The notes below the pieces were generated by a model that worked only from the letters and a program-made list of their open reading frames with translations, made no database searches and was not told the DNA's origin. From assembly GCA_964419805.1 (NCBI GenBank), contig CAYQQA010000002.1, positions 825 through 25,056 of the forward strand: 24,232 bases of DNA, given 5' to 3'. Position 1 is the first letter of the stretch. Every line of letters starts with the position of its first letter. Below are positions 760 to 23,946 of this stretch, piece by piece. The position numbers and the translations under genes are program-made. This DNA is from Candidatus Woesearchaeota archaeon (GTDB lineage Archaea > Nanobdellota > Nanobdellia > Pacearchaeales > GW2011-AR1).

Positions 760-760
760 A

Positions 761-1312
761 ATGATAAAACCCTATTACCATGAGGAACTTTTTAGTTTAG
801 AAGGATTTGGAAGAAGGGATTTCCTCAGAGTTATGCCTGATTGGATAAACAATGAAAAGGTCACCCATTATATGGTCACAGGGCTCTATCCAGCAAACTA
901 CCAAAAACTAGCAGAGGTGTATGATCATGATTTGAAAGAAGGGAACATTGTTTTTGCAATTAGGGCAGGGGAATCTAAAGATATTGTTGGATCCACGGGC
1001 CTTTATAGATTTGATTGGCAATCAAGACATGCAGAATTTAGGATTATTATCGGGGATGAGGGAATGTGGGGAAAGGGAATTGGATCTAATGTTTGCAAAT
1101 TTTTGGTCCAGTATGGGTTTGAAAGATTGAATCTTAATAAAATATGGCTGGGAGTGAATGAAGAAAATAAGGCGGCTGTGAAATCATATGAAAACGCCGG
1201 TTTTCATCATGAAGGAAGTTTAAGACAAGAATTATTTAGAAATAATAAATATTATGATATCTTGAGGATGAGCATTTTAAAAGAAGAATATGAAACACAA
1301 AACAAAAACTAA
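761..1312 (+). CDS. GNAT N-acetyltransferase, RimJ/RimL/PseH-like
   Basis: 183 aa ORF with acetyl-CoA-binding WGKGIG, AEFRIIIG, LNLNKIWLGVNEENKAAVKSYENAGF and EGSLRQ. Starts 1 nt after the upstream stop. Confidence 0.85.
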   Translation: MIKPYYHEELFSLEGFGRRDFLRVMPDWINNEKVTHYMVTGLYPANYQKLAEVYDHDLKEGNIVFAIRAGESKDIVGSTGLYRFDWQSRHAEFRIIIGDEGMWGKGIGSNVCKFLVQYGFERLNLNKIWLGVNEENKAAVKSYENAGFHHEGSLRQELFRNNKYYDILRMSILKEEYETQNKN

Positions 1313-2366
1313 AGCAATTATAATTGGATGTGGAAACATTGGTTGTGGTTTGGACAACTTCAGTCCTGGATTCGTCTCAACACATCTTTCTGCGTACAAA
1401 AACAATGAAAATGTTTCTTTAGTTGGGGTTTGTGATTTGGACTTAAAAAAGGCCAGAGAAATTTCAGAAAAAAATAATATTCCTTTTTACTCAGACAATT
1501 TAATAGAAATTATGGGGAAAACAAATCCTGACGTGGTGAGTATTTGCGTTCCGGACGAGTCTCATTATGGTGTTTTTAAAAAAGTTGTTAATTTTAAATG
1601 TGTGAAAGGAATATGGTGTGAAAAACCAATTGCTGTGACTTTGGAACAAGCGGAAGAAATGTTGGCAACGTGCAATAAAAAAAATATTAAACTTTTGATA
1701 AATTATTACCGAAGGTATGATCAATTTTATAAAACAATTAAAAAAAATTTAAAAAATTTGGTTGGAGAAGTTCAGTGTGTTAGCGGTTATTATAGTGGCG
1801 GAATTGTGACTAATGGATCACATTTAATTGATTTACTCTGTTATTTTTTTGGTCCATGCAAATCAGTTTACGCTGCAATTAATAAAAATGAAAATGAATT
1901 AAATGATTTAAATTGTGGGTTAATTTTCAATGAGAATATTTTTGTAAATTTATCTCCTTGCAACAATGATAATTTTTCTATTTTAGAGCTTGACATTGTG
2001 GGGACTAATGCTAGATTAGATATTGTTGTTAAGCCCTTTGGTAGATACGATTACAGGTACTACGTAAAACAAAAAGATTCCTTGTTGAATGTAGAGTATA
2101 TTGGCAACAAAACTCTTAATTTAATTGATAAAAATATGAAAAGAGATTATTTTGAAAAAGAACTACTGGACCTTCTTCTTTCTATCGATAATAATTATAT
2201 GCCTCAATCCTGCACTAATGCAGTGCACGTTGTAGAAATCCTTAGCGCACTTGTTTTTTCTGCTCAAAACAAAAGTGTTTGGGTGGATTTGCCTTTTCAT
2301 GAAAAAAAAATTTTAATCCCAAAACAACAAGGAGATCTTAAAAAATGGAAAAACCAGCGATCTTAG
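1290..2366 (+). CDS. Gfo/Idh/MocA family NAD(P)-dependent oxidoreductase
   Basis: Rossmann IIGCGNIG, DVVSICVP..SH, the family CEKP motif, NYYRRY and NGSHLIDLL. Overlaps the upstream gene by 23 nt. Confidence 0.88.
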   Translation: MKHKTKTKAIIIGCGNIGCGLDNFSPGFVSTHLSAYKNNENVSLVGVCDLDLKKAREISEKNNIPFYSDNLIEIMGKTNPDVVSICVPDESHYGVFKKVVNFKCVKGIWCEKPIAVTLEQAEEMLATCNKKNIKLLINYYRRYDQFYKTIKKNLKNLVGEVQCVSGYYSGGIVTNGSHLIDLLCYFFGPCKSVYAAINKNENELNDLNCGLIFNENIFVNLSPCNNDNFSILELDIVGTNARLDIVVKPFGRYDYRYYVKQKDSLLNVEYIGNKTLNLIDKNMKRDYFEKELLDLLLSIDNNYMPQSCTNAVHVVEILSALVFSAQNKSVWVDLPFHEKKILIPKQQGDLKKWKNQRS

Positions 2367-3616
2367 GGGGAGACCCCGTACTTCATGAAGGTTTGCCTGT
2401 AACCAATAACATTGGCTTTGAAGAAAAAAAAGAAGTTTTAGAGGTGTTGGAAAGTGGTGTCCTTTCAGATTTTTTAGCCAATGCAGGAGATAAATTTCTA
2501 GGGGGAAAAACTGTCTTAGAGCTCGAAAGCGAGTTTAAAAAAAAGTTTGGAGTGAAATATGCAATATCTTTTAATTCCGCAACTACTGCTCTTGATGCAG
2601 CTGTTTGTTGCTTGGATATATGTCCGGGGGACGAGGTAATTGTTTCTCCTTACACAATGTCTGCTTCAGCAACCTCTATTTTAATGAATGGAGCAATCCC
2701 TATTTTTGCAGATATAGAAGAAGATAGTTTTTGTTTGAATTCCCATTCAATAAGAGAACGAATAACAGAAAAAACAAAAGCAATTATGGTGACAAATATT
2801 TTTGGAGGATCTGCACGGTATGACGAAATAATTGAAATTGCAAAAAACTTTAATTTGAAAATAATCGAAGATAATGCCCAAGCTCCTGGAGGAATTTACA
2901 AAAATAGATTATTGGGAACTATTGGAGATGTTGGAGTTTTTAGCTTTAACCGTCACAAAACTATGCAGTGTGGTGAAGGAGGAGTTTTGATTACCAACAA
3001 TAAAGATTATGCATTCAGAGCCCAACTAAAAAGGAATCATGGAGAGGTCATACTTGACGATTTAAAAATAGATGAAAAATTTATTCTAGGAAGCAATTAT
3101 CGGCTTACAGAAGTAAATGCAGCAATAGCCAAGGCCCAACTAAAGAAATTAGATTTTTTAAATGAAAGAAGAATACTCTTAGCAGAATATTTATCAGAGA
3201 AATTAAAAGGCATTGAAGGATTAACCCCTGTTTATGTTTTGCCAGATTCCACTCATGTGTATTATTTATACCCTATAAAATTTGATGAGCAAAAATTTGG
3301 AATCTCGCGAGAATTATTTGTCAAGGCAATGAAAAAAGAAGGATTTAATTTAAACTCAGGTTATCTCAAGCCATTGCATCTTTTATCTTTATTCCAAAAA
3401 AAGAAAATTTATAAAAATTCTGGATATCCGTTTACCTTAAATAAGGATCTAAATTATTCTAAAGGAATTTGCCCTGTGGCTGAAAAATTTTATGAAAAAG
3501 AACTAATCTTAACAGACATCTGCAGATATCCTTTGAGTAAACTCCATGTGAATCTTTTTATAAAAGCTATTGAGAAAATAATTTCAAATAAAAAATTATT
3601 GAAACATATAAAATGA
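2345..3616 (+). CDS. DegT/DnrJ/EryC1/StrS family PLP-dependent sugar aminotransferase
   Basis: FNSATTAL, PGDEVIVSPYTMSASA, IIEDNAQAPG, FSFNRHKTMQCGEGG (PLP lysine) and GSNYRLTE. A GGAG lies about 10 nt upstream of the ATG. Confidence 0.92.
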   Translation: MEKPAILGGDPVLHEGLPVTNNIGFEEKKEVLEVLESGVLSDFLANAGDKFLGGKTVLELESEFKKKFGVKYAISFNSATTALDAAVCCLDICPGDEVIVSPYTMSASATSILMNGAIPIFADIEEDSFCLNSHSIRERITEKTKAIMVTNIFGGSARYDEIIEIAKNFNLKIIEDNAQAPGGIYKNRLLGTIGDVGVFSFNRHKTMQCGEGGVLITNNKDYAFRAQLKRNHGEVILDDLKIDEKFILGSNYRLTEVNAAIAKAQLKKLDFLNERRILLAEYLSEKLKGIEGLTPVYVLPDSTHVYYLYPIKFDEQKFGISRELFVKAMKKEGFNLNSGYLKPLHLLSLFQKKKIYKNSGYPFTLNKDLNYSKGICPVAEKFYEKELILTDICRYPLSKLHVNLFIKAIEKIISNKKLLKHIK

Positions 3617-4662
3617 ATGTTTTATTTGCAGGTCAAGACTTAGGAGGTTCTGAGGCTATCCTTCCCGTTGCATTAGCTCTAAAAAAAAATCAGAATAATA
3701 AAATAGTTTGTTTTATGGAAAGCTTAGGCAAAAAATTATTTATCAAAAATAATTTGTCTTGTGAGGATTTAGAATTTTTAAGGGATTCTCAAATCCATGA
3801 AAAAATTGTATCATTCAAACCAGACATCATAGTTACAGGAACTAGTCTCGGTTTAACCATCGATAAAAAAATAATCAAACACGCCAAGAAATTATCTATA
3901 AAATCTTTGAGTATAATTGATTACTGGGCTAATTACAAAAAAAGATTTTTAAAAACTGGAGACGGCACTTTTTATTTACCCGATTTTATATGCGTTATTG
4001 ATGATTTTATGAAACAAGAAATGATTGATGAAGGCTTTGATGGCAAAAAATTAAAAGTAACCGGTAATCCCCATTTCGACGAGTTTGCAGAGAAAAACCA
4101 TAACTCTTTAAAAAACCAATTGTTATTCATTGAGCAACCTATGTTTGACCTCAAAAAATTTGGATTAGAGGTGGGATACGACGAAGTTGAAGTTTTATCA
4201 GATATTTTGGAAATACTGAAATTTATAAACAGTAAAAATAAAAAAAAATGTTATTTATTATTGAGAATTCATCCAAGAAGTAACAAGAATCGGTTTTTGC
4301 CTTTATTAAAAAAATTTCCCGATCTTATAATATTGGACAAAAATAAAAACCTATCCGAATCAATCTCAAAATCGAGAATCGTTTTAGGGATGTCTTCTGT
4401 CGGGCTTTTTCAAGCATTTTTGGGAGGTGTAGAAGTAATGAGCTATCAACCAAATATCTCTTCAAAAACAGACGCATCTATATTAAATAAATTAGGTGTC
4501 GTAAAATCAATTTACTCTAAAGGAGAATTAAAAAGTAAACTCATAGACACATTGGCTTCAAAAAATTATGTTTTCAAAAAACATGATATGTTTAAAAAAT
4601 ATGTTGAGAATAACTCTACTGAAAAAATCATAAAATTAATCTCTCAAATTGTTTCTACATAA
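3613..4662 (+). CDS. GT-B-fold protein of CDP-glycerol glycerophosphotransferase/polysialyltransferase-like type; candidate CMP-nonulosonate transferase
   Basis: 349 aa ORF with ATGA overlap. Motifs QDLGGSEAILPV, IIDYWANY, LPDFICVID, VTGNPHFD and an HP motif (LRIHPRS) followed by LGMSSVGL, as in GT-B enzymes that use cytidine-nucleotide donors. The exact activity is inferred from context. Confidence 0.55.
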   Translation: MNVLFAGQDLGGSEAILPVALALKKNQNNKIVCFMESLGKKLFIKNNLSCEDLEFLRDSQIHEKIVSFKPDIIVTGTSLGLTIDKKIIKHAKKLSIKSLSIIDYWANYKKRFLKTGDGTFYLPDFICVIDDFMKQEMIDEGFDGKKLKVTGNPHFDEFAEKNHNSLKNQLLFIEQPMFDLKKFGLEVGYDEVEVLSDILEILKFINSKNKKKCYLLLRIHPRSNKNRFLPLLKKFPDLIILDKNKNLSESISKSRIVLGMSSVGLFQAFLGGVEVMSYQPNISSKTDASILNKLGVVKSIYSKGELKSKLIDTLASKNYVFKKHDMFKKYVENNSTEKIIKLISQIVST

Positions 4663-4726: not shown

Positions 4727-4747
4727 TAACAAGATTCAATGAAATCT

Positions 4748-5809
4748 ATGATTAATTTAAAAAAGATGTTTAAAAACAAAACCATTTTAATAACTGGTGG
4801 AACAGGATTTCTTGGCAGATCTTTAGTTAAGGAAATTTTAAAATATTCTCCCAAAAGTATAAGGGTCTTTAGCAGAGATGAATTAAAACACCATGAAATG
4901 GAATCAAAGTTAGGCAAAGATTATCGTGTTGACAAAATAAGGCATCTTATTGGAGATGTAAGAGATTATGAAAGAGTATTAAACGCAACAAAAGGCGTCG
5001 ATATATTGATCCATGCTGCAGCCCTAAAAAGAATAGATCTTATAGAATATAATGTTGAAGAAGCAATAAAAACCAATATCCTAGGATGTGTGAACATTGC
5101 AAGGGCAAGCCTTAAAAATAAGGTTAAAAAAGTAATATTTGTCTCAACAGATAAAGCATGTTCTCCAATAAATACTTATGGTGCATGCAAGTTCCTAGGA
5201 GAGAGATTATTTTTGGAAAGCAACTATAGTAGAGGATCTTCAATAACCAAGTTCATAGTAGTAAGATATGGGAATGTTTTAGATAGCACAGGATCGGTTA
5301 TTCCCTTTTTCAAAAACAAAATAAAAAATAATCAAATAATTCCTTTAACAAGCACAAAAATGACTCGGTTTATAATTACTCCTCAACAAGCCGTGGAGCT
5401 TATTTTTAATGCAATATTTTATGGGCAAGGAGGAGAGATTTTTGTTCCAAAACTGCCTGCAATGAGACTTCCAGATTTAATAGATCTTTTAAAAGAAGAA
5501 ATTGGAACGAGCCCTCCCGTTAAGGTAATAGGTTTAAGACCTGGAGAAAAAATAGATGAATTAATGATCAACGAATCAGAATCTTCAAGAACATATGAAT
5601 TTAAAAAAATGTATGTGATTATGTCGATTATCGAAGAATTTAAGCCATGGCATAAACAACTAAAAGAAATGGCCTGGGCTAAGGAAGGAAAAAAATTAAA
5701 AAAAGATTTTAAAGAATATAACTCAAAAGATGCATGCTTGCCTAAAGAAAAAATCAAGAAAATTTTAATGCCTTTAATTGAAAATGAAAATTTTAATAAC
5801 TGGAGCTAA
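4748..5809 (+). CDS. pseB: UDP-N-acetylglucosamine 4,6-dehydratase, PseB/FlaA1/CapD family
   Basis: ITGGTGFLG, VFSRDELK, IGDVRD, HAAALK, KTNILG, STDKACSPINTYGACK, VRYGNVLDSTGSVIPFF and GLRPGEKIDE. In-frame ATGs at 4739, 4748 and 4766; 4748 was chosen from the TATA spacing. Confidence 0.88.
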   Translation: MINLKKMFKNKTILITGGTGFLGRSLVKEILKYSPKSIRVFSRDELKHHEMESKLGKDYRVDKIRHLIGDVRDYERVLNATKGVDILIHAAALKRIDLIEYNVEEAIKTNILGCVNIARASLKNKVKKVIFVSTDKACSPINTYGACKFLGERLFLESNYSRGSSITKFIVVRYGNVLDSTGSVIPFFKNKIKNNQIIPLTSTKMTRFIITPQQAVELIFNAIFYGQGGEIFVPKLPAMRLPDLIDLLKEEIGTSPPVKVIGLRPGEKIDELMINESESSRTYEFKKMYVIMSIIEEFKPWHKQLKEMAWAKEGKKLKKDFKEYNSKDACLPKEKIKKILMPLIENENFNNWS

Positions 5810-7808
5810 CGGGCTCTTAGGATCTAATTTAGTTTTTTTATATTCCAAACACAATGAAGTACATGCAACAAGCAGAAGTAAAACAACCTTTAAAAATTGC
5901 TTCAATCATAAATTAGATATTCTTAATTTTGAAGATTTGAAAATAATTAAAAATATAAAACCTGATTTGGTGGTCCATTGTGCAGCACTTACAAATGTTG
6001 ATTACTGTGAAGAAAATACTCGAGAAGCATATGAAATTAACGTGGAGGGAACAAGAAATTTAATAAATGCGTGCAAGAATCTCAATTGTTATTTTGTTCA
6101 CATTTCGACAGATGCGGTTTTTAATGGAAATTTGAGCAACTATTCCGAAGAGAATATTCCTGATCCAATAAATGTATATGGGCGGACAAAATTAGAAGCA
6201 GAAAAAATAGTTCAAGATTCTGGACTTGACTATTGCATTCTTAGGACAAATATTTATGGGTGGAATTTTAAAGATAAACAAAGTCTTGCAGAGTGGATTC
6301 TTTCTGAGCTCAAAGAAAATAAAAAAACTCCAGGTTGTAAAGACATTTTTTTTCCTCCAATTACTGTGACCAATTTAGGAAGAATTATTTTAGAAATCTA
6401 TGAAAAAAATTTAAGAGGAATTTTTCATGTGGGGGGATCTGAATCTTGTTCGAAATTTGAATTTACAAAATCTATTGCAAAAATTTTTGGTTATGATGAA
6501 AATTTGATTTGTCCAAAAAACTCAGATGAAATTAATTTCAAAGCCAAGAGAGCTAAAAACATGATTCTAAATGTCCAAAAATCCAGACAGCTTTTAAATA
6601 CTAAGATAAAAAATATTGTTGAAGGAATTCAAGAATTTAAAGATTTAAAAGACAAAGGATATGTGAAAGAATTAAAAGAATCTGATAAAAAATTACTATT
6701 AAGCCTACAAAAGATTAATAAGCAAAGTAATTGTCAAGAAAATATGGAAATAAAAATAGGAAATAACTTTTTGGGAAATTGTAGGCCAGTTTATTTTATA
6801 GCAGACATAGCTGCAAACCATGATGGAGATTTAGAAAGAGCTAAAATGCTTATAAGACTTGCAAAAGAAGCAGGAGCCAATGCAGCAAAATTTCAACATT
6901 ATGATGTAAAACATTGTGTGAGTGAAAAAGGTTTTGAATCTCTTGGGGGGAAATTTTCGCACCAATCAGAATGGAATAAATCTGTTTTCCAAGTATACAA
7001 AGATGCAGAGGTGCCCACTAATTGGACGGCCGAGCTAAAAAAATACTGTGATGAAATTGGCATAGATTTTTTTTCCACGCCCTATGATCTTTATATGGTG
7101 GATCATTTAGATGAATATTCTCCTGCATTTAAAATTGGATCAGGTGATATTAATTTTTCCCAAATGCTTGAAAAAGTTGCAAAAAAATTGAAGCCCGTTC
7201 TTTTGTCTACCGGAGCTTCAACCTTGGGAGAAGTTCAAAAAGCAGTCGAACTTGTAACCTCAATAAATAAACAGGTTATATTATTGCAATGTAACACAAA
7301 TTATACTGCACAAGATATGAATTTTGACCACATAAATCTAAATGTTCTTAAGACTTATAGACAGATGTATCCAAATATGGTTCTTGGTTTATCCGACCAT
7401 ACAAAAGGGCATTCTACCGTTCTTGGTGCGGTTGCATTAGGTGCGAGAGTAATAGAAAAGCATTTTACAGATGATGTAACAAGGCTCGGTCCGGATCATC
7501 CTTTTTCAATGGATCCTAAAACATGGAAAGAAATGGTGGATAGGACTAGAGAATTAGAGAGATCCATGGGAAGCTCCTTAAGAAAAGTTGAAGAAAATGA
7601 AAAGGATACAGTTATCCTCCAAAGAAGATGCATAAGGGCAAGTAGGGATATTTTCCAAGGGCAAACACTAACTTCGGCGGATTTAGAATTCCAAAGGCCT
7701 GCCCCCAAAGGAAGTTTGGAACCTTGTTTTGAAAATGAAGTTATAGGAAAAAAAGCCAAAATAAACATATTCAATGAAGAACCCCTCAGCTTTTCAAATA
7801 TAGAATAA
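5784..7808 (+). CDS. neuB: Fusion ORF: N-terminal RmlD-like (dTDP-4-dehydrorhamnose reductase family) SDR plus C-terminal NeuB/PseI/SpsE-type nonulosonate synthase with SAF/AFP domain
   Basis: N-half: ITGANGLLG, HCAALTNVDYCE, HISTDAVF, PINVYGRTKL. C-half from Met at 6744: FIADIAANHDG, AAKFQ, FFSTPYD, KIGSGD, LSTG, GLSDHT, IEKHFT, GPDH, RRCIRA..DI..G. The ORF track start at 5778 is TTG; ATG 5784 (MKILITG) is more plausible. Confidence 0.88.
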   Translation: MKILITGANGLLGSNLVFLYSKHNEVHATSRSKTTFKNCFNHKLDILNFEDLKIIKNIKPDLVVHCAALTNVDYCEENTREAYEINVEGTRNLINACKNLNCYFVHISTDAVFNGNLSNYSEENIPDPINVYGRTKLEAEKIVQDSGLDYCILRTNIYGWNFKDKQSLAEWILSELKENKKTPGCKDIFFPPITVTNLGRIILEIYEKNLRGIFHVGGSESCSKFEFTKSIAKIFGYDENLICPKNSDEINFKAKRAKNMILNVQKSRQLLNTKIKNIVEGIQEFKDLKDKGYVKELKESDKKLLLSLQKINKQSNCQENMEIKIGNNFLGNCRPVYFIADIAANHDGDLERAKMLIRLAKEAGANAAKFQHYDVKHCVSEKGFESLGGKFSHQSEWNKSVFQVYKDAEVPTNWTAELKKYCDEIGIDFFSTPYDLYMVDHLDEYSPAFKIGSGDINFSQMLEKVAKKLKPVLLSTGASTLGEVQKAVELVTSINKQVILLQCNTNYTAQDMNFDHINLNVLKTYRQMYPNMVLGLSDHTKGHSTVLGAVALGARVIEKHFTDDVTRLGPDHPFSMDPKTWKEMVDRTRELERSMGSSLRKVEENEKDTVILQRRCIRASRDIFQGQTLTSADLEFQRPAPKGSLEPCFENEVIGKKAKINIFNEEPLSFSNIE

Positions 7809-7809
7809 A

Positions 7810-8511
7810 ATGAAAATATTAGTAATTTCGGCACACCCCGATGATGAAATACTTGGGTGTGGGGCAACAATAGCCAAATATATCAATCAAGGCCACGAAG
7901 TAGAGATTTTAATAGTTGGAGATGGAATTACCGCGAGGCATGAGGAATTTGAATTGGGCAATCCCGAAGTAATCCAAAAAATAGAAAGTATAAACATGGA
8001 TGCAAAAAAAGCTTCTTTAAGGTTGGGGGTAAAAAATATAGAAATTAAAAGTTTAAAATGTATGAGGTTTGACAAATATCCTTTTCTTGATATTGTTAAC
8101 ATACTAAGAAAAAAAGTAAGAAGCTTTAAACCAGATATTGTATTCACACACCATTATGGGGACTATAATCCCGACCATAGAATAGTCCATAATGCAACTC
8201 TTTTTGCATGCAGGCCTGCTTTTGGAGAATTTTATCCAAAAGAAATATATTGTTATGAGGTTCTTTCATCGACTGAAAGAGCTTTTCAAGGACCTCAATT
8301 TATTTTTTGCCCAAATGTTTTTGTTAACATCAAAGATACAATTAAGGATAAGTTGGATGCAATGAAGAATTATCTTTCGGAAGTCAACCCATACCCTCAT
8401 GCAAGGAGTTTAGAAGGGATAGAAAACTTAGCAAAAAAAAGAGGAAACGAAGTAAGTTTAGAATATGCGGAAGCATTTATGTTAGTTAGGTCTCTTAAAG
8501 ATGAAAAATAA
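7810..8511 (+). CDS. PIG-L/LmbE family N-acetyl-sugar deacetylase
   Basis: AHPDDEILGCG metal motif, FTHHYGDYNPDHRIV, YEVLSSTE, YPHARS and AEAF. Confidence 0.9.
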   Translation: MKILVISAHPDDEILGCGATIAKYINQGHEVEILIVGDGITARHEEFELGNPEVIQKIESINMDAKKASLRLGVKNIEIKSLKCMRFDKYPFLDIVNILRKKVRSFKPDIVFTHHYGDYNPDHRIVHNATLFACRPAFGEFYPKEIYCYEVLSSTERAFQGPQFIFCPNVFVNIKDTIKDKLDAMKNYLSEVNPYPHARSLEGIENLAKKRGNEVSLEYAEAFMLVRSLKDEK

Positions 8512-9415
8512 ATATGCATGGGTAACATACAGAAATTGGTCTCTTAAAGCATTAGAAGGAGTTCTTAATACGAATGACTGGAAGCCTGGATTATTGATAA
8601 CAACAAATGATTGTGTTTATGATTTTTCGAGGTTTAAAAAAAAAGGGGTGCCTGTTTTGAGAATCGATCCTAAAAAAGAACTAAAAAAAGGAACTTTAGG
8701 TTATAACGCGCTTATGGATTTATCCCCTCAAGCAATATTTTACAGTGGATGGTCATGGATTGTTCCAGATGAACTTTTAAAACCAATTTCAGGAATATCT
8801 AACTTAGTATTGCATCCGGGAATGCTCCCAAAAGATAGAGGTGGAAGTCCTATTCAAAACCAAATGAGAGCAGGGAGAAAAAGCACATATGCAAATCTAA
8901 TAGAACTTGAAAAAGAAGTTGACGCAGGCCCAATTTATTTTAAAGAAAAAATTTCTCTTGAGGGGCAAGCAGATGATGTATGGGCAAGAATGACTTCAGC
9001 AGCAATCACCACCGCAAAAAAATATCTTAAAGCTTATGCAGAAGGAAATTTATATCCAAAACCTCAAGTTGGAACACCTAAAGTACATAAAAGAATAAAA
9101 TCAAAAGATTCGAAATTAACTCCCAAGATTCCTTCTTTGCAAGCAGAAAGAATAGTAAGGGCACACAATGAAACAGATCCTAATTCATACGTCACACCAG
9201 CACATATAAACTTTCAAAGAGGAAAATTAAACATAGAAAGAGCAAGCCTTTCAAAACCAAAGGGGACAAGAGAAGTTCTATGGAAACCAGATAAAATATG
9301 GTCAGATTTAACTTTGGATGAACTTCTTTTAAGATTAAATAATGGAGATATTGTGATATCTTTCCCAGATAATCAAGAAGGCAAACTATATTTAACAAGA
9401 TCTCATAGAGTATAA
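8501..9415 (+). CDS. Formyltransferase (Fmt/ArnA-N-terminal family), probable sugar N-formyltransferase
   Basis: FYSGWSWIVP, LHPGMLPKDRGGSPIQNQ and EVDAGPIY, plus a C-terminal VRA domain. Overlaps the deacetylase by 11 nt. Confidence 0.8.
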   Translation: MKNKYAWVTYRNWSLKALEGVLNTNDWKPGLLITTNDCVYDFSRFKKKGVPVLRIDPKKELKKGTLGYNALMDLSPQAIFYSGWSWIVPDELLKPISGISNLVLHPGMLPKDRGGSPIQNQMRAGRKSTYANLIELEKEVDAGPIYFKEKISLEGQADDVWARMTSAAITTAKKYLKAYAEGNLYPKPQVGTPKVHKRIKSKDSKLTPKIPSLQAERIVRAHNETDPNSYVTPAHINFQRGKLNIERASLSKPKGTREVLWKPDKIWSDLTLDELLLRLNNGDIVISFPDNQEGKLYLTRSHRV

Positions 9416-9416
9416 G

Positions 9417-10730
9417 ATGGCTAAAGACAAAATATTCATATTCGATATGGATGGAGTTATTGTAGACAGTGTTGGTTCTTTATTATCAATGTATGGGGAT
9501 TTTTTAAAAAGATTTGGAAAACAACACCAAGAGCATGAATTAACAAAAATTAATGGTATGAAAATTAGAGAAATAGCCACATTCATGAAACAAAACCATA
9601 ATTTAAAAGAGGATGTGGAATTTTTAATAAAAGAATATGATGAAGAAATGAAACGAATATACACAAAAGTTTTGCCTATGAAAGGAATAAAACAAGCCAT
9701 AGAGTTATTAGCTAAAAATTATCTTTTATGTGTGGCTAGTTCTTCAAAAAAAGAAAATATAGAATTCATGTTAAATAAGTTTGGATTAAAACAATATTTT
9801 GAATATATTGTTTCTGGAGATGATATAACCAATGCAAAGCCTTCCCCCGAAATCTATAAAAAAATCATAAAGAAGTATGGTGAGAAAGAATATTATGTTA
9901 TTGAGGACTCTTCTAATGGGTTAACTGCTGCAAAATTAGCAGGAGCAAAAACAATTTTCTACAATCCAAAAGGAAAGAAATTAGATCAAAAGGTTGATTT
10001 TAATTTAGCAAGCTTGGAGGAAATAAAAAAACTTTTGATAGAAATTAATGTGGGAATAAAAGTTTTAGATAAGATTGATAATATAGAATTCGTTCAAAAA
10101 GATTTTAATTTATATACTGATAATGAAAAACAAGAAAAAATACATAAAATATGGCAAGAACAATCAAAATTAAAACCAACACTATTCAACGGAAAAATTT
10201 CTTCTTACATTTCACATAAAAGCGAAAGTGGAAAAATAATAGTAAATTATTTTGTTACAGATTATAAAACTTATTTAGCTAAACTTTTGGGAAACATTGA
10301 TTTGGAAATCTATCCTTTGGCAGTCAATGGAATAACAATAGTTGATGAAAACAGATTTATTGTAGCTAAAAGAAGAGGAGTTAGCGAGTATGAGGGTTAT
10401 TGGGAATTTGTTCCTTCTGGAGGAATTACTTTCGAAAATATAAAAAAAGAATTCCCTCACAAACAACAAATAAATGAAGAGTTATATGAAGAACTAGGAG
10501 AAAAAGTAAACCTCGATAAAATTAAGCTTTTTTATTTATTTTTTGATAAATGCCATAGATTATATAGTGTTGGTTGCCAGATTAATGTCGATTCAAATTT
10601 TAACTTAGAAAATTTCAAAAAAGGAGAATACTCGGAGTATAAAGTCTTTGATAAAAATGAAGTAAGAGATTTCATAAACAACAATAATTTTGTTCCAATC
10701 TCTAAGGCAATTTTTGAGCTTTTAGAATAA
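9417..10730 (+). CDS. HAD-superfamily phosphatase fused to a Nudix-like domain
   Basis: HAD motifs FDMDGVIVDS, ASSS, AKPSPEIY and IEDSSNG in the first ~210 aa. The C-terminal part has LFNG, AKRR..SEYEGYWEFVPSGG and a degenerate Nudix box (INEELYEELG). Confidence 0.8.
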   Translation: MAKDKIFIFDMDGVIVDSVGSLLSMYGDFLKRFGKQHQEHELTKINGMKIREIATFMKQNHNLKEDVEFLIKEYDEEMKRIYTKVLPMKGIKQAIELLAKNYLLCVASSSKKENIEFMLNKFGLKQYFEYIVSGDDITNAKPSPEIYKKIIKKYGEKEYYVIEDSSNGLTAAKLAGAKTIFYNPKGKKLDQKVDFNLASLEEIKKLLIEINVGIKVLDKIDNIEFVQKDFNLYTDNEKQEKIHKIWQEQSKLKPTLFNGKISSYISHKSESGKIIVNYFVTDYKTYLAKLLGNIDLEIYPLAVNGITIVDENRFIVAKRRGVSEYEGYWEFVPSGGITFENIKKEFPHKQQINEELYEELGEKVNLDKIKLFYLFFDKCHRLYSVGCQINVDSNFNLENFKKGEYSEYKVFDKNEVRDFINNNNFVPISKAIFELLE

Positions 10731-10745
10731 TAAAATACAATTAAT

Positions 10746-10753
10746 TTTATAAA
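10746..10753 (+). promoter_or_regulatory. Putative archaeal TATA box (TTTATAAA) for neuA
   Basis: Ends 21 nt before ATG 10775, in a 44 nt intergenic gap. Confidence 0.62.
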
Positions 10754-10774
10754 TTAAACAATTTATAGACAATC

Positions 10775-11497
10775 ATGCAAAAAAAAGAAAACATTGTCGC
10801 AATAATTCCTGCGAGAGGAGGGAGCAAAGGCATTCCTAGAAAAAACCTTAAGCTCTTAGAGGGGAAGCCTTTAATTGCACACATTATAGAATCTGCTTTA
10901 AAAGTAGAAAAAATAAACAGAGTTATTGTTTCTACGGATGACCAAGAAATTGCTCAAGTAGCCAAACAACATGGGGCAGAAGTTCCATTTATAAGGCCAA
11001 CAGAACTTTCAGGAGATAAGGTTTTAACAGCCCCAGTTTTACAACACACGGTTGATTGGCTAAAAGAAAAAGAAAATTACAATACTGACATAGTTATTTT
11101 ATTATATGCTACTTCTCCTTTACTTCAATCAAACAAAATCAGCGAAGCAATAGATAAAATACAAGGAAAACCAGAGATTGATTCAGTAGTAAGCTTAGTA
11201 ATGGATGATAAATATCATTGGAAAGAAGACAGTGGAAAATTAATAAGGTTTTATCCCCATAAAATAATGAGAAGGCAAGATATGAAGCCCCTATTGCGTG
11301 AAAACGGAGCTTTGTATATAATTAGACAAAAGCTTCTAAAACAGACGGGAGATTATATGGGCGGAAATATAGCGTATGTGATTATGAATGATAAGGAATC
11401 TTGGGATATTGATACTGAAGATGATCTAAGAATCATAGAGGGATTAAAAAAATTTCCGCTAATTTCCTCCGATGAATTAGGTAATCAAAACATATAA
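10775..11497 (+). CDS. neuA: CMP-N-acylneuraminate (nonulosonate) synthetase
   Basis: AIIPARGGSKGIPRKNL, VSTDDQEI, VPFIRPTELSGD, TSPL, RRQD, ENGALY and DIDTEDD. Confidence 0.92.
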   Translation: MQKKENIVAIIPARGGSKGIPRKNLKLLEGKPLIAHIIESALKVEKINRVIVSTDDQEIAQVAKQHGAEVPFIRPTELSGDKVLTAPVLQHTVDWLKEKENYNTDIVILLYATSPLLQSNKISEAIDKIQGKPEIDSVVSLVMDDKYHWKEDSGKLIRFYPHKIMRRQDMKPLLRENGALYIIRQKLLKQTGDYMGGNIAYVIMNDKESWDIDTEDDLRIIEGLKKFPLISSDELGNQNI

Positions 11498-11508: not shown

Positions 11509-11529
11509 CTAATTTTTTATTTGATAATT

Positions 11530-12387
11530 ATGAATATAGGAATAATCGGCATGGGCGTTGTGGGAAAAGCTACTGCACATGTATTAAAAAAAGTTCATTC
11601 AATACTTCCTTATGATAAGTACAATGCCCCCTATGACAATGAATCTTCTCTTGATGAAATTGCAAAGGAATCAGATGCAACATTTTTGTGTGTTCCCACA
11701 CCCATGAAATCTTCTGGTGCAATAGATTACTCTGCAATTCATAATAGTTTAGATTATTTTTCACAAAGGACTTCTTTTTGTTGTAGGAAGTTAGAAAATC
11801 ATTTAATTGTTGTTCGATCTACTGCTACGAGCGGTACTACGGATAATCTTTCTGAAAGATACAATTTCCGGTTTGCATTTAATCCAGAATTTTTAACAGA
11901 GAGGAATTCATTTGAAGATGCCGAGAATACTGATAGGGTTGTGATTGGGTCTAATAACGAACAGGATTATAATTTAGTAGAGTCTATATATAGGCCAGTC
12001 TTTCCTAATGCAAAATATATAAATGTAAACAGAAAAACTGCTGAAATGATTAAATATGCTTCGAACGTGACTCTAGCTGGCCAAATAGCTTTAGCAAATG
12101 AGTTATTTCAAATTTGTAAGGTTATGGGGGTTAGTTGGGAAACAGTAAGGAAAGCAATCATTCTTGATAAAAGGATAGGGGCCTATACGGAGGTTCCGGG
12201 GCATGATGGAGACTTGGGGTTTGGAGGGAAATGCTTCCCAAAAGATTTGAATGCTTTAATTTACCTTGCAAGAGATCACATGTACCGACCATATTTATTA
12301 GAAGAAATTTGGAGACTAAATGAAAAGGTAAGAAAAGATAAAGATTGGTTAGAAATAGAAGGAGTAACAAATATAAAAAATGATTAA
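11530..12387 (+). CDS. UDP-glucose/GDP-mannose dehydrogenase family protein, short form lacking the C-terminal domain
   Basis: IGMGVVG, FLCVPTP, RST, FNPEFLTE, AEMIKYASN and GFGGKCFPKD (catalytic Cys). The ORF track start at 11521 is TTG; ATG 11530 was used. Confidence 0.87.
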   Translation: MNIGIIGMGVVGKATAHVLKKVHSILPYDKYNAPYDNESSLDEIAKESDATFLCVPTPMKSSGAIDYSAIHNSLDYFSQRTSFCCRKLENHLIVVRSTATSGTTDNLSERYNFRFAFNPEFLTERNSFEDAENTDRVVIGSNNEQDYNLVESIYRPVFPNAKYINVNRKTAEMIKYASNVTLAGQIALANELFQICKVMGVSWETVRKAIILDKRIGAYTEVPGHDGDLGFGGKCFPKDLNALIYLARDHMYRPYLLEEIWRLNEKVRKDKDWLEIEGVTNIKND

Positions 12388-19580: not shown

Positions 19581-20118
19581 TTTTTTCTTTTAAATCTTTC
19601 ATGTACTCAGTCAAAGGTATATTAAAATTTATTTCTTCGTTAATTTCTGGAACCCCTTTTTCATCAATATGGTATGCAAACTGATATAAAGTTTTGCCTC
19701 CTGGAGTGTGATTTCTCATTTTAGCCTCAATTTCAAAACCCAATTTTTCAAACATTGATGAAACTGAAGGATTTTCTCCAACTAATGAATCGGTAATTTT
19801 TCTTCTTCCTTCCATATGGAAAATTTTTATGGCTGATTTATAGAGAAGTTTTCCAATTCCCTTGCCCCTATATTCCGGCAAAACTGCAACTTTACCACCT
19901 TTCCCAATATGTGATTGGGGCCTGTGCAATTTTAATGCTCCAACAATTTTTCCATCAATCTCCACAACAATTATTGAAATTTTTCCTTTTTCATTTTCTT
20001 TTAAACATTTATTTATTTCTTTAATATCAGTATAGGGCAGCCAAATTCCTCCAGATTTGTAAACGTTAAGTATTTCTTCAGCCTTTTCAATACTAGCTTT
20101 TTTCACTTCCTTCTTCAT
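19567..20118 (-). CDS. GNAT family acyltransferase
   Basis: VAVLPEYRGKGIGKLL acyl-CoA motif and FEKLGF. Overlaps both neighbours. Confidence 0.85.
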   Translation of the reverse strand: MKKEVKKASIEKAEEILNVYKSGGIWLPYTDIKEINKCLKENEKGKISIIVVEIDGKIVGALKLHRPQSHIGKGGKVAVLPEYRGKGIGKLLYKSAIKIFHMEGRRKITDSLVGENPSVSSMFEKLGFEIEAKMRNHTPGGKTLYQFAYHIDEKGVPEINEEINFNIPLTEYMKDLKEKNEVH

Positions 20119-21243: not shown

Positions 21244-23946
21244 TTATGGATTTGTTCTAACCTCTAAATCATCAAACTCCGCATATTTCCCTTGTCTTCT
21301 TAAGAATTCTTCTTTTTCTAAAATATAATCCGGATAGTCAACATCCCATATCTTGATAGGTCCCCTAAATCCTTGATAATAAATAAATTCTCCAAGATTA
21401 GCTCCTTGAGATTTTAAACTTTCAACAACAGGATCATCTTGTGAATGGGCTAGTTTTATCGTCGGGTACTTGTCAAGCGGATCGTCCATCAAGTACATTT
21501 GTGCAAACAAACTATTTTCTGTTTTTTCAGAAAGGTAAAGCATTGCGCCAAAATTATCAATCCCTGTACCAGAACTCGTCTGTTCCAAAGAAGGGATAAA
21601 CACAACTGTCGCGTTCACACCTTCTTCATATTGAATTAACTGTCCTTGGACATAAATGTTTTTTATAGGGATCCTTATCTGTTGATCATTATACAAGTAA
21701 ACCCCTATAGGTTGCTTAACTCCAAAAGAGCCTTCATCATTTCTCATGTCAAGTATCACTCCAATCACTGCCGCCCTGCCTTGGGGGAGCAGAATCTCAT
21801 TGCCCTCCTGACTATAGATTATGTCTTTGTCCAATGAAAATCCTCCTTGGAAAACTCTCAAAGTGGTGTTTTGGGTTTCTTGAGTTTGTCGCGGATCATT
21901 TGGCATTAACGGAATCCAGCTATTTCTGTCACTCCCTGTTTTATCACTCCCAATGCTACTATATGCCCCATATTTTCCTAAGTCAGTCGGATCTATGAGT
22001 AGATTTGTGATTTCATTAGACTTCATAAAGCTTAGCGCTAAATCTGGAACCGGATTTGTCAAAACATATCTTCCAATCATGTGGTCCCTGAATTCTCCTT
22101 GAAAATGTCCTCCATCAGCAATTGTTTTTCTTTCCCCCAAATACTGCACCCAATACCCATAATCCCACCAGTGAACAAAAACACTTTTTTCAGCAGTATT
22201 ATCTCTGACCCATTCCATCGCCTTCTGCCACTGGCCGTTTGCACTTGGCCCAGTGTATTTAGCTTGTGCCGTGGAAACTCCTACAAAAAAATTAAAACTC
22301 AATATTAACAATATTAAAATAATTACGCTTCCTGCTCCAAAAAACAATTTTGACATTTCTTCTTTAGAACTTTTAAACTTTCTGACAACTTGGTCAAAAC
22401 CATATCCTACCATCATGCAAGTAACTGGCGTTATTACAAAAAATAATCTTACAGCTCCTCTGGTCCCGACAATCATTGGGATCAGCAAAGATGCGAAAAC
22501 CAAAAACCTTCCATCAATACCGTTTATTTTTTTGTTAAAATACAAATAAAGTGCATATACTCCAAAAATCGCAATGCCTCCAAAATACAAAAGTTTGCTG
22601 ATAAAATTAGTCCCATTCAAAATAGAGCTTGAAGAAATTCTGCTCAAAGAAATTCCTAAAATCATGGCTATCCAAAAAATTGCAAATAAATATTTGTCTT
22701 TTTTCTTTTTAGCTATTTTTGACATTTCAATTCCTAATAACGCTGAGCCTAGCAAAAATATCCAAAAAAATCTCGGTCCTATTTGTGAGGTCCAATCCTG
22801 AAGAAAAGGTTGCTTGTTTTCAGCCACCGTCAAACCGACCCTGCCAGTTCCAAAAGGATGTATTAATCTGGAAAAGAAATCAGAAACCAATGAAAAAGGA
22901 TCCATCCCCAAAATAGGAAGCAACAAAAATCCCAGAATAATTGTTATCACAAAGCTTGCAACAATTCTGTATTTTTTTAACAAACCTTCTTTTCCATAAT
23001 ACTTCTGGACAGCAAAATCAACAATTAGAAAACCAAAAACAAAAAGAAAAATTATGCCCTCAGTACCTGAAATAAATCTATCCAAAATTCCTCCTGCTCC
23101 ATATTTAGTAAAAATACCAAAAATAATTCCCGAAACAAACCAAATCAGATATGATAAAACAAAATAGTTTCTAATTTTCCCATCAATTTTATGTTCGTTT
23201 ATAATCCAATAAAGAAAAAAAGCCAGAGGAACTACCATGAAGACAAATTTAGCAATCCCTCCCCAAGCTACTATTGTCAAAGTTGTTAGTGCCCCCAAAA
23301 TCACCGAAGCTGTTACAGAATTTTTCAACTTTTTTTTGTCGGTTTTTTCTTTTTCAAAATTATTAAATAAAAGTATTAATGGAATTAATGATAAAAAAAA
23401 CGCAGCCATACCTATTGATTCGTGGTCTGCAAATCCTGCGGTAGATCTATAAATATAACTTGGAATAAACGCAAGAAAAATTGAGCTCACCGTCGAGGCA
23501 GTTTTTGATTTTGTTAAAAGCAATACTAAAAAGAAAAAAGCAATAAATCCAATAATATAAAAAATAACTGGTGAAATAACATCGATGTATTGAATGGAAA
23601 AATCTCCAAAAACATTTGAAATTTTATGGAATAAAACAACCAGGTCTGGAAGAATTTCCGGACTCCACCCAACGTTAAAAGGACCTCTTAACGGATCAAA
23701 TTCAGGCAAACCTCCTTGGCTTATTGTTTCAGCCATCCTCAAAAAATAAAACGGATCCAAAGCAGTAGGGATGTATTCTCCCGTTGTTTGGTCCTTGAGG
23801 AGATGAAGATTGCTAGTCCTTATAGAAGTGCTCCAAATAAGTGTCACCAGAAGAATTATAAAAACAACAGCCAGCTGAAATTTTTTATTCAAAAAAAGAT
23901 TCTTTATTTTCTTAAAATCAATTTTGATTTCATCTTTTTCTTCCAT
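21244..23946 (-). CDS. aglB: Archaeal oligosaccharyltransferase AglB (STT3 family)
   Basis: 900 aa multi-pass membrane protein with ALDPFYFLR, GFADHE, TVAE (TIXE-like), HWWDYG, ADGGH and a DxxK (DLGK) DK motif. Confidence 0.95.
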   Translation of the reverse strand: MEEKDEIKIDFKKIKNLFLNKKFQLAVVFIILLVTLIWSTSIRTSNLHLLKDQTTGEYIPTALDPFYFLRMAETISQGGLPEFDPLRGPFNVGWSPEILPDLVVLFHKISNVFGDFSIQYIDVISPVIFYIIGFIAFFFLVLLLTKSKTASTVSSIFLAFIPSYIYRSTAGFADHESIGMAAFFLSLIPLILLFNNFEKEKTDKKKLKNSVTASVILGALTTLTIVAWGGIAKFVFMVVPLAFFLYWIINEHKIDGKIRNYFVLSYLIWFVSGIIFGIFTKYGAGGILDRFISGTEGIIFLFVFGFLIVDFAVQKYYGKEGLLKKYRIVASFVITIILGFLLLPILGMDPFSLVSDFFSRLIHPFGTGRVGLTVAENKQPFLQDWTSQIGPRFFWIFLLGSALLGIEMSKIAKKKKDKYLFAIFWIAMILGISLSRISSSSILNGTNFISKLLYFGGIAIFGVYALYLYFNKKINGIDGRFLVFASLLIPMIVGTRGAVRLFFVITPVTCMMVGYGFDQVVRKFKSSKEEMSKLFFGAGSVIILILLILSFNFFVGVSTAQAKYTGPSANGQWQKAMEWVRDNTAEKSVFVHWWDYGYWVQYLGERKTIADGGHFQGEFRDHMIGRYVLTNPVPDLALSFMKSNEITNLLIDPTDLGKYGAYSSIGSDKTGSDRNSWIPLMPNDPRQTQETQNTTLRVFQGGFSLDKDIIYSQEGNEILLPQGRAAVIGVILDMRNDEGSFGVKQPIGVYLYNDQQIRIPIKNIYVQGQLIQYEEGVNATVVFIPSLEQTSSGTGIDNFGAMLYLSEKTENSLFAQMYLMDDPLDKYPTIKLAHSQDDPVVESLKSQGANLGEFIYYQGFRGPIKIWDVDYPDYILEKEEFLRRQGKYAEFDDLEVRTNP

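Follow-up and report, generated by a model that had tools for sequence, protein, structure and literature searches.

The CMP-pseudaminic acid pathway of Helicobacter pylori and Campylobacter jejuni (PseB-PseC-PseH-PseG-PseI-PseF) starts with a PseB-type inverting dehydratase that acts on UDP-GlcNAc, and ends with a NeuB-family condensation with PEP and activation to the CMP-sugar. In Vibrio cholerae O37, WbvB, WbvR and WbvD form a route to the UDP-2-acetamido-2,6-dideoxy-L-hexoses L-RhaNAc or L-QuiNAc, in which an RmlD-family C4 reductase takes over the UDP-HexNAc keto sugar from a PseB/FnlA-type dehydratase, and which ends at the nucleotide sugar. An archaeal N-glycan with a nonulosonate is described for Halorubrum sp. 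PV6, where the sugar is N-formyl-legionaminic acid (PMC6137143), a 5,7-diamino sugar made via an aminotransferase route. A 7-hydroxy-9-deoxy nonulosonate has been known chemically since 2017 from Fusobacterium nucleatum: as far as PMC7371886 relays its reference 4, ATCC 25586 is the one Fusobacterium strain known for a 7-hydroxy nonulosonate, and its O-antigen contains 6-deoxy-L-AltNAc and a 5-amino-3,5,9-trideoxy nonulosonate. Searching the open-access literature, we found no biosynthetic route for this sugar, no characterized enzyme of the corresponding F. nucleatum locus, and nothing relevant on an RmlD-type enzyme in nonulosonate synthesis or on the F. nucleatum annotation.

We analyzed a stretch of 24,232 nucleotides (hereafter called the window) from a tiny, uncultured Candidatus Woesearchaeota archaeon. 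An earlier note on this DNA had read the combination of a dehydratase with a reductase-synthase fusion as a reductive route to a mono-amino 9-deoxy nonulosonate. Judging from sequence comparisons, we consider it fairly probable that the core run of genes at 4739-11497 represents a branch of the pseudaminic-acid-type pathway that is reductive and does without an aminotransferase, and with which this archaeon probably makes the rare 7-hydroxy type of nonulosonate for its protein glycans. The features of the core run, and of the N-glycosylation island in the same window, are the following:

4739..5809, + strand: PseB-like UDP-GlcNAc 4,6-dehydratase, C5-inverting type (Polysacc_synt_2, E 2e-89)
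5784..6638, + strand: predicted RmlD-like NAD(P)H 4-ketoreductase domain (RmlD_sub_bind, fusion aa 3-287, E 1e-60)
6639..6743, + strand: interdomain linker, which stops at ATG 6744 (MEIKIG), the start point of stand-alone NeuB homologues
6744..7808, + strand: NeuB-family synthase with SAF domain (NeuB, aa 358-600, E 2e-73; SAF, aa 617-676)
7810..8511, + strand: PIG-L family N-deacetylase, tailoring (PF02585, E 3e-25)
8501..9415, + strand: formyltransferase, tailoring (Formyl_trans_N, E 6e-10)
9417..10730, + strand: HAD phosphatase fused to a divergent Nudix-like domain (HAD_2, E 2e-34)
10775..11497, + strand: PseF-like CMP-nonulosonate synthetase (CTP_transf_3, E 6e-32)
21244..23946, - strand: AglB/STT3 oligosaccharyltransferase of the N-glycosylation island (STT3 and STT3-PglB core domains)

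The Pfam scores of the dehydratase and of the fusion domains are far above chance. Position 4748 is the second in-frame ATG of the pseB-like ORF, and thus an alternative start. The fusion ORF ends at 7808 and starts at either 5778 (TTG) or, as is more likely, 5784 (ATG, MKILITGANG), giving a protein of 674-676 aa; with the start at 5784, it overlaps the end of the pseB-like gene, stop codon included, by 26 nt. The same RmlD::NeuB architecture is found in four proteins of Nanoarchaeota from separate samples (P0003-P0006, 59-64% identity), in which the linker is kept in length and partly in sequence, as well as in a further archaeal protein of 41% identity (P0007). Because fusion and linker are conserved in four proteins at 59-64% identity, a one-base sequencing error or a recent read-through was ruled out. 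ORF calls, Pfam domains and these relatives together confirm the earlier observation that the pseB-like gene overlaps a single ORF joining an RmlD-like reductase to a NeuB synthase. The reductase and NeuB genes of a close archaeal relative (L012) are unfused and adjoining, and the archaeal fusion arose at least twice. An apparent bacterial fusion (P0110) was rejected as an artifact, as its reductase part turns, over the C-terminal third, into the Arg/Pro-rich nonsense that frameshifts typically produce in GC-rich DNA; it still shows that the two genes are adjacent.

For the dehydratase, PseB (TIGR03589) is the top-scoring NCBIfam model at 344.5 bits, under its cut-off of 407.75, and the closest solved relative is FlaA1 of H. 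pylori (2gn4, 281 bits). Both the extended-SDR fold of PseB and the [ST]DK...Yx3K signature tabulated in PMC8987622 are present, with STDK...YGACK of the window protein aligning with FlaA1. The same signature occurs in the Pen 5,6-dehydratase. In the reductase domain, GxxGxxG (G9/G12/G15) and the Ser/Thr-Tyr-Lys triad (S110/T111, Y134 and K138) are invariant across all fusions.

The synthase half combines the NeuB TIM barrel and SAF domain with the PEP- and metal-binding motifs of NeuB-family synthases, and its KIGSG, LSDHT and EKHFT align with both N. meningitidis NeuB and PseI. It is nevertheless equidistant from the solved NeuB, PseI and SpsE structures (150-157 bits), and scores 277.4 bits against the NeuB/LegI model TIGR03569 (cut-off 399.65) and 241.1 bits against the PseI equivalog (cut-off 340.25). 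Proteins of its kind, characterized by the motifs [AV][YF]K[IV]GSGDI and L[LM]QCNTNY, occur in more than 584 species genomes at 52-64% identity to the window synthase. Two features concern the sugar substrate: at the C2-specificity position described for PseI (PMC7371886), the window has KIGSGD (Gly) whereas PseI 8h2c has KIASFE (Phe), and the loop reading C4-C6 of the sugar is longer by six residues, an insertion that is conserved. The earlier note had proposed placing the NeuB domain in a tree of characterized synthases. Our tree, for which canonical NeuB paralogues of the same phyla served as outgroup, separates the canonical NeuBs from the subfamily with a support of 100, while the characterized synthases were compared through NCBIfam cut-offs and through bit scores against solved structures instead. 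At sequence level, the synthase belongs to a large subfamily of its own, apart from NeuB, PseI and SpsE.

We then considered the genomic surroundings of this subfamily in 54 species loci that extend for 5 kb or more on either side of the NeuB gene. In 52 of the 54 loci, the gene immediately upstream of the subfamily NeuB is RmlD-like, which, together with the arrangement in the archaeon L012, bears out the adjacency that the earlier note had suggested looking for in other genomes. A PseB-like gene is found in 53/54 loci, and 39 loci contain the trio with no aminotransferase within 10 kb; a cytidylyltransferase is likewise present in 53/54, DegT in 13/54 and a class-III aminotransferase in 3/54. 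As the sampled loci are mostly from Anaerolineae, which dominate the set, these counts are not independent. In about a quarter of the bacterial loci, mostly from Acidobacteriota and Proteobacteria, DegT lies between the PseB-like and RmlD-like genes, showing that reductase and aminotransferase can coexist; in some cases the substrate of the reductase may be something other than the PseB product. This speaks against the reductive reading, as does a PseH-like GNAT that is retained by several relatives (Fusobacterium, L004, L059), though a second amine is not predicted. The NeuB and RmlD trees are congruent, grouping the window with P0003-P0006 and L012, and then with a locus from Balneolaceae (L013). 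Reductase and subfamily NeuB are co-inherited, fused or adjoining, usually without a nearby aminotransferase. The pair is distributed over scattered DPANN archaea and over environmental bacteria in their hundreds (among them Anaerolineae and Acidobacteriota), in which it is obligate. The pathway is not peculiar to archaea.

Among the Fusobacteriaceae, 3 of 131 species have a subfamily NeuB, always with an RmlD-like gene and without DegT, whereas the canonical NeuBs of this family occur with DegT and without an RmlD-like gene. In F. nucleatum ATCC 25586 (AE009951.2, about 176-183 kb), the RmlD-like gene, the subfamily NeuB, a GNAT and a flippase are consecutive; in strain CP144258.1, the wider locus also includes a PseB-like gene, and no DegT was found there within 9 kb. 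The subfamily NeuB of F. nucleatum is 52% identical to the window synthase and is overlapped by the RmlD-like gene, itself 35% identical to the window reductase, while the PseB-like protein is 42% identical to the window dehydratase. The window thus has the same cassette, consisting of a PseB-like gene, an RmlD-like gene upstream of or fused to the subfamily NeuB, and a cytidylyltransferase. The two loci also differ: in F. nucleatum, reductase and synthase genes are unfused, and the cytidylyltransferase is of the SpsF type and accompanied by an aldo-keto reductase, an SDR and a GNAT, unlike in the core run of the window. PIG-L and formyltransferase genes are absent from that locus, whose sugar is N-acetimidoylated, and the glycan is a bacterial O-antigen rather than an archaeal N-glycan. 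What ties the cassette to the F. nucleatum sugar is a correlation between genotype and chemotype. One name needs correcting: the earlier note had called the mono-amino sugar fusaminic-acid-like; fusaminic acid proper is a 5,7-diamino tetradeoxy sugar, of which the 7-hydroxy sugar is the "trideoxy counterpart" (PMC7371886).

In the pathway that we propose, the PseB-like enzyme would, judging by family and motif, convert UDP-GlcNAc to UDP-2-acetamido-2,6-dideoxy-L-arabino-hexos-4-ulose. The RmlD-like domain would then use NAD(P)H to reduce the 4-keto group, at the point where amination by PseC would otherwise take place, yielding a UDP-2-acetamido-2,6-dideoxy-L-hexose, most simply 6-deoxy-L-AltNAc. 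Nucleotide removal is the weakest step; the HAD::Nudix-like protein is a candidate for a two-step release of the UDP-sugar. We call its second domain Nudix-like only, because Pfam Nudix gave no match in the protein at E < 0.1 and the remaining evidence is weaker (an NCBIfam Nudix match of the C-terminal half at E 8e-4, and NUDIX clusters among 56 of 100 Atlas feature matches of the protein, score 0.96). In relatives its gene is not kept, its place being taken by DUF218 (L001, L012) or a GT4-like gene (bacteria). Elsewhere in the window, an Epimerase_2 gene (20115-21212) was considered as a UDP-hydrolyzing enzyme of the NeuC/LegG type and rejected, with 204 bits for the WecB model and 40 bits for the NeuC model.

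The NeuB::SAF domain would next condense PEP and the free sugar, which would give a 5-acetamido-3,5,9-trideoxy-non-2-ulosonic acid hydroxylated at C7. PIG-L deacetylase and formyltransferase probably exchange its sole N-acetyl for N-formyl, so that the end product is probably 5-N-formyl; PIG-L follows the synthase in L001, L013, L132 and L133 as well, and is again joined by the formyltransferase in L001, L013 and L133. Finally, the PseF-like enzyme (170.9 bits for NCBIfam PseF, cut-off 205.7) would provide the CMP-sugar for an AglB-linked N-glycan. Its orthologues are the last gene of the cassette in L001 and L012, and the AglB/STT3 flank recurs in L001. Compared with CMP-pseudaminic acid synthesis, first and last steps would be shared, but an RmlD-like reductase stands in place of PseC and PseH, and the product is predicted to carry a single nitrogen, with a hydroxyl at C7; Pfam and NCBIfam recognized no PseC, PseH or PseG in the core run. 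The predicted first two steps resemble those of WbvB/WbvR/WbvD, with the difference that in the window a NeuB-type synthase is predicted to use the reduced sugar. With Halorubrum sp. PV6, the window would share an N-formylated nonulosonate on an archaeal N-glycan, though of the mono-amino type.

The same product could also arise in a different order: with the nucleotide taken off beforehand, the substrate of the reductase domain would be either the free 4-keto sugar or a 7-keto nonulosonate coming from the synthase domain. In that case the two fused domains would catalyze consecutive steps, as fused enzymes often do, whereas the standard order places a hydrolase step between reductase and synthase, and we found no conserved hydrolase candidate for UDP release in the archaeal loci. 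We nevertheless consider this order unlikely: the substrate-binding domain of the reductase is complete (RmlD_sub_bind profile positions 1-281 of 287), to our knowledge all characterized RmlD-family enzymes use nucleotide-linked 4-keto sugars, and the bacterial genes are separate, with a GT4-like gene beside the pair in 45/54 loci.

Another possibility is raised by the module directly upstream of the core run (31-4662), which comprises, by Pfam and NCBIfam domains:

1/31-759, + strand: SpsF-like cytidylyltransferase, accessory module
761-1312, + strand: GNAT, accessory module
1290-2366, + strand: Gfo/Idh/MocA oxidoreductase, accessory module
2345-3616, + strand: DegT aminotransferase, accessory module
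3613-4662, + strand: GT-B protein, accessory module

The DegT, 1.1 kb upstream of the core run, might aminate the PseB product and the GNAT acetylate it, giving a pseudaminic-like 5,7-diamino sugar, while the RmlD-like domain merely diverts part of the keto sugar to a 6-deoxy-L-HexNAc that enters the glycan separately. The position of DegT, GNAT, GT-B and a second cytidylyltransferase on the same strand speaks for this, as does 6-deoxy-L-AltNAc being itself a glycan residue in F. nucleatum 25586 (reference 4, as relayed in PMC7371886). We hold it to be quite unlikely, however, as the solved relatives closest to the DegT are BtrR and KdnA (180 bits) rather than PseC (130), and its 206 bits for NCBIfam PseC compare with a cut-off of 423. 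Its orthologues, together with the Gfo/Idh/MocA gene and the rest of the module, occur in nonulosonate clusters that already have their own PseB and PseC-like pair (L137, L138 and a JGI contig), and the archaeal relatives L001, L003 and L012 carry the cassette without any DegT. Moreover, the specificity site of the synthase is not PseI-like, and the window NeuB is the only one in the genome (82% complete). The core run is free of aminotransferases, as the earlier note had stated, and the upstream DegT turns out to be of an accessory type, not PseC; amination of the PseB product by this enzyme, which the note had named as an outcome that would count against its reading, looks unlikely from its BtrR/KdnA-like scores and the coexistence of its orthologues with PseC-like enzymes.

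That the reductase is an ordinary dTDP-4-dehydrorhamnose reductase for rhamnose, fused by chance to a sialic or legionaminic acid synthase, is highly improbable: although RmlD models are its best family matches in Pfam and NCBIfam, it stays under the rmlD equivalog cut-off (188.8 bits versus 224.05), RmlC was not found in the 82%-complete genome, its gene neighbors in the loci examined are the PseB-like gene and NeuB rather than rmlABC, and the NeuB-linked reductases, including that of the window, form their own clade, with the unlinked RmlD paralogues of the same genomes outside it (support 100).

The comparative tests that we ran all favor the reductive route to a mono-amino 9-deoxy nonulosonate put forward in the earlier note; synteny, congruent trees, the contrast within Fusobacteriaceae and strain ATCC 25586 support it, and the case follows from the fusion, its specialized halves, the F. 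nucleatum link and the non-PseC character of the DegT. The reductase-synthase pair is a concrete candidate gene set for the F. nucleatum sugar, and the archaeal fusion is independent genetic evidence that both enzymes act in one pathway. Since the pair occurs in hundreds of bacteria and scattered DPANN archaea, this sugar may be far commoner than its single chemical report suggests. For the host-dependent archaeal cell, the reductive route leads one to predict that the N-glycans are capped by a new sialic-acid-like sugar, probably in N-formylated form, relevant to cell-cell contact and virus recognition.

The end product may be further modified or aminated by the upstream module, whose Gfo/DegT/GT-B/cytidylyltransferase genes also lie beside the reductase-synthase pair in L008, L018, L075 and L134. 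Conceivably, though this is doubtful, the module acts after the synthase, oxidizing a secondary hydroxyl (C7, C8 or C4) of the finished mono-amino nonulosonate, then transaminating and acetylating it to a diamino sugar. Such a "reduce first, aminate late" scheme, as KdnA/KdnB make Kdo8N, would be a tailoring route so far undescribed for nine-carbon sugars, and the same module would lead to triamino sugars in clusters where PseC coexists; we found nothing relevant on late amination of nonulosonates in the open-access literature. For PseH, the GNAT of the module reaches 60.7 bits (cut-off 93.1). A reading of the GT-B protein as PseG found no support, with no PseG model match in Pfam or NCBIfam at E <= 0.001; its matches are all weak, the clearest being to the BFO_1060 nonulosonate-transferase family (PMC5420450).

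The window most likely encodes a pathway to a mono-amino, 7-hydroxy, 9-deoxy nonulosonate rather than to Pse or Leg. This reading, already proposed in the earlier note, is supported by synteny, co-phylogeny, a contrast within one bacterial family and a genotype-chemotype match in Fusobacterium nucleatum. The label "fusaminic-acid" that had been attached to such a sugar does not hold, since fusaminic acid proper is described in PMC7371886 as a diamino sugar. In the open-access literature searched, we found no published account of a reductase-synthase pathway. The window (GC ~30%) is nearly the whole of a 25-kb contig from a genome of 868 kb that is 82% complete, and its nearest protein relatives carry the label Nanoarchaeota. 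The central features are:

4739-5809, + strand, Polysacc_synt_2 dehydratase (PseB-like), E = 2e-89
5778 (TTG) or, likelier, 5784 (ATG) to 7808, + strand, fusion ORF in a single frame
Residues 3-287 of the fusion ORF, RmlD_sub_bind, E = 1e-60
Residues 358-600 of the fusion ORF, NeuB, E = 2e-73
Residues 617-676 of the fusion ORF, SAF

Because these three domains share one frame and the ORF overlaps the dehydratase by 26 nt up to the latter's stop, the arrangement noticed earlier, a pseB-like gene overlapping a single reductase-synthase ORF, was correct; only the start assigned to the pseB-like gene has to be moved, as 4748 is the second ATG of the ORF at 4739-5809.

In the proposed pathway, the PseB-like enzyme, which carries the inverting-dehydratase signature [ST]DK..Yx3K, would produce a UDP-4-keto-6-deoxy-L-sugar, and the reductase domain would reduce it at C4. 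Removal of the nucleotide is the weakest step; its candidate enzyme (9417-10730) combines a HAD phosphatase with a divergent Nudix-like domain, a fusion that could cut the UDP-sugar to the sugar-1-phosphate and then to the free sugar. The place of this candidate gene is occupied by a DUF218 gene in archaeal relatives and by a GT4-like gene in bacteria. The synthase domain would condense the free sugar with PEP, a PIG-L protein and a formyltransferase would swap the one N-acyl group, and a PseF-like enzyme would activate the sugar for an AglB-linked glycan; an AglB/STT3 oligosaccharyltransferase is encoded in the window. The PIG-L and formyltransferase pair also lies 3' of the synthase in three other loci (L001, L013 and L133), and the final sugar in the source archaeon is probably N-formylated and possibly further modified. 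The order of steps may also be hydrolysis, condensation and then reduction, with the same product. DUF218 genes stand beside NeuB in archaeal and Patescibacteria nonulosonate clusters without PseG (L001 12759-13370, L012 11041-11661, L137 6651-7265), and the DUF218 protein may be a non-homologous UDP-sugar hydrolase.

Both halves of the fusion score below their reference cut-offs. The synthase half reaches neither the NCBIfam cut-off of NeuB (277 of 400) nor that of PseI (241 of 340) and is equally distant from the solved N. meningitidis NeuB, a PseI and B. subtilis SpsE (150-157 bits). A very large number of stand-alone proteins share 52-64% identity with it, and in a scan of one genome per species its two signature motifs, [AV][YF]K[IV]GSGDI and L[LM]QCNTNY, were matched in more than 584 species. 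The carriers of this subfamily are mostly Anaerolineae, with Acidobacteriota, Proteobacteria, Gemmatimonadota, Verrucomicrobiota, Balneolaceae and Fusobacteriaceae also represented. At a position tied to the C2 configuration of the substrate (PMC7371886), the subfamily has Gly (KIGSGD), like NeuB and LegI, while PseI has Phe (KIASFE). A conserved six-residue insertion also sets the subfamily apart from PseI; it lies in the loop to which recognition of C4-C6 of the sugar has been ascribed. The reductase half scores 189 against an rmlD cut-off of 224, and no RmlC was found in the 82% complete source genome. In the reductase tree, a branch with support 100 separates all 84 NeuB-linked sequences from three RmlD paralogues that the same bacterial genomes carry unlinked to NeuB. 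A GT4-like domain is fused to NeuB once, in the bacterial protein P0069.

The earlier suggestion to look for rmlD-neuB adjacency in other genomes was borne out. We labelled neighbouring ORFs, using the window's own proteins as queries, in the best 80 species loci, and counted features within ~10 kb at the 54 loci where the synthase is flanked on each side by 5 kb or more; these loci are phylogenetically clumped, and the counts are descriptive rather than statistics. An RmlD-like gene lies directly upstream of NeuB in 52 of the 54, and a PseB-like gene and a cytidylyltransferase are each found in 53; the cassette is widespread in bacteria. A GT4-like gene is present in 45 loci, DegT in 13 and a class-III aminotransferase in 3, and 39 loci combine PseB-like, RmlD-like and NeuB genes with no aminotransferase. 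DegT is also absent from the cassette loci of the archaeal relatives L001, L003 and L012. Two bacterial cassettes (L011 10808-12903 and L010 11082-13205) contain an AAC(3)-type N-acetyltransferase with a DUF4910/M28-like protein, a pair that may be an analogue of the N-acyl exchange by PIG-L and formyltransferase in the window.

Fusobacteriaceae provide both a contrast within one family and a tie to known sugars. The subfamily synthase occurs in 3 of 131 species genomes, two of them Fusobacterium varium and Fusobacterium sp. oral taxon 370, each time with an upstream RmlD-like gene, a PseB-like gene, an SpsF-like cytidylyltransferase and a GNAT, and with no DegT nearby in any of the three, whereas the canonical NeuBs of the family (36-38% identity) are accompanied by DegT and a PseF-like gene but lack an RmlD-like neighbour. 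A search with the oral-taxon synthase led to a protein of 96% identity that bears the name F. nucleatum; one of the records encoding it is AE009951.2, the genome of F. nucleatum ATCC 25586 (PMC4234264). There, a cytidylyltransferase gene is followed by an RmlD-like gene overlapping the synthase gene, then a GNAT and a flippase; in another F. nucleatum chromosome (CP144258.1), the wider locus also encodes an aldo-keto reductase, an SDR and a PseB-like dehydratase, and shows no DegT over a distance of 9 kb. The F. nucleatum synthase is 52% identical to its counterpart in the window, the dehydratase 42% and the reductase 35%. The O-antigen of ATCC 25586 contains 6-deoxy-L-AltNAc and a 5-amino-3,5,9-trideoxy nonulosonate, according to a 2017 report as cited in PMC7371886 (its ref. 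4). These two sugars match exactly those predicted as the output of the reductase and as the product of that output's condensation with PEP, a genotype-chemotype correlation. The F. nucleatum locus (CP144258.1, L139 6237-8012; also L141-L145) encodes a 591-aa protein that joins a second, divergent NeuB-like domain to a CTP_transf_3 cytidylyltransferase; on AE009951.2 only its 259-aa cytidylyltransferase part is called.

A rival reading, in which the window's own DegT (2345-3616) aminates the PseB product and thereby undoes the aminotransferase-free scheme, was raised in the earlier note and now appears unlikely. The top solved relatives of this DegT are 2-deoxy-scyllo-inosose aminotransferases and the Kdo8N transaminase KdnA (180 bits, against 130 for H. 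pylori PseC), and its gene overlaps that of a Gfo/Idh/MocA oxidoreductase that best matches inositol and UDP-GlcNAc 3-dehydrogenases. Orthologues (55-57% identity) recur in the same module of Gfo, DegT, GT-B protein, cytidylyltransferase and often GNAT, inside nonulosonate clusters that carry a PseB-like plus PseC-like pair of their own. These comparisons therefore suggest an add-on, not a stand-in for PseC. Three further loci (L008, L018, L075) and the archaeal L134 have the Gfo/DegT/GT-B module next to a reductase-synthase pair; the module may, with rather low probability, serve in late oxidation and amination of the finished sugar. The GT-B protein (3613-4662, + strand) weakly matches the family of a Tannerella forsythia Pse/Leg transferase (BFO_1060), and a second GT-B-like partial ORF lies on the window's own contig (C2), at bases 3 to ~800, upstream of the window and before a run of N; both are candidate transferases for placing the nonulosonate on the glycan.

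That the fusion is a one-base error is ruled out, because its architecture, motifs and linker are conserved in homologues. A search of 5.8 billion proteins gave four further proteins of 665-671 aa with the same architecture and 59-64% identity, and one more at 41% (P0007); those bearing a name are labelled Nanoarchaeota. The nucleotide-binding glycines, the reductase Ser/Thr-Tyr-Lys triad (S110/T111-Y134-K138) and the NeuB motifs are invariant across the aligned fusions, and in the four closest the linker keeps its length and part of its sequence. Whichever of the two domains the tree is built from, the window clusters with these four, followed by L012, an archaeon with separate adjacent genes, and then the Balneolaceae locus L013. 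P0007 branches apart, with the unfused archaeal locus L134, and the trees therefore point to at least two origins of the fusion. Genes for an RmlC/FdtA-like isomerase and for a longer dehydratase (461 aa, with a faint CBS match) come before P0007 (L003 2838-4691), which suggests a variant with an extra epimerisation before reduction. In an apparent bacterial fusion, P0110, the reductase part looks frameshifted, and it was counted as adjacency only.

Some NeuB is present in 76 of 400 sampled genomes of the window's phylum and the subfamily in only 3, all unfused; no NeuB of any kind was found in the 27 genomes of the window's own family. As the subfamily is dominated by bacteria, lateral transfer is likely. 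Pathway fusions are common in these small DPANN genomes: cytidylyltransferase with NeuB (L130, L131), NeuB with a GalE-like (epimerase-like) SDR (L125), and PseB-like with SpsF-like cytidylyltransferase (L132, L133). Elsewhere in the source genome, a 3.6-kb contig (C84) encodes a GDP-mannose 4,6-dehydratase-like protein, a methyltransferase, a cupin, a Nudix protein and a second RmlD-like reductase (252 aa), a cluster with no relation to the fusion, whose product is probably a GDP-6-deoxyhexose. Within the window, a UDP-glucose/ManNAc dehydrogenase-family ORF (11521-12387, + strand) of only 288 aa covers profile positions ~68-296 of 413, is without the C-terminal UDP-binding domain and abuts a convergent epimerase gene (12384-13424); the ORF may have been truncated or have decayed.
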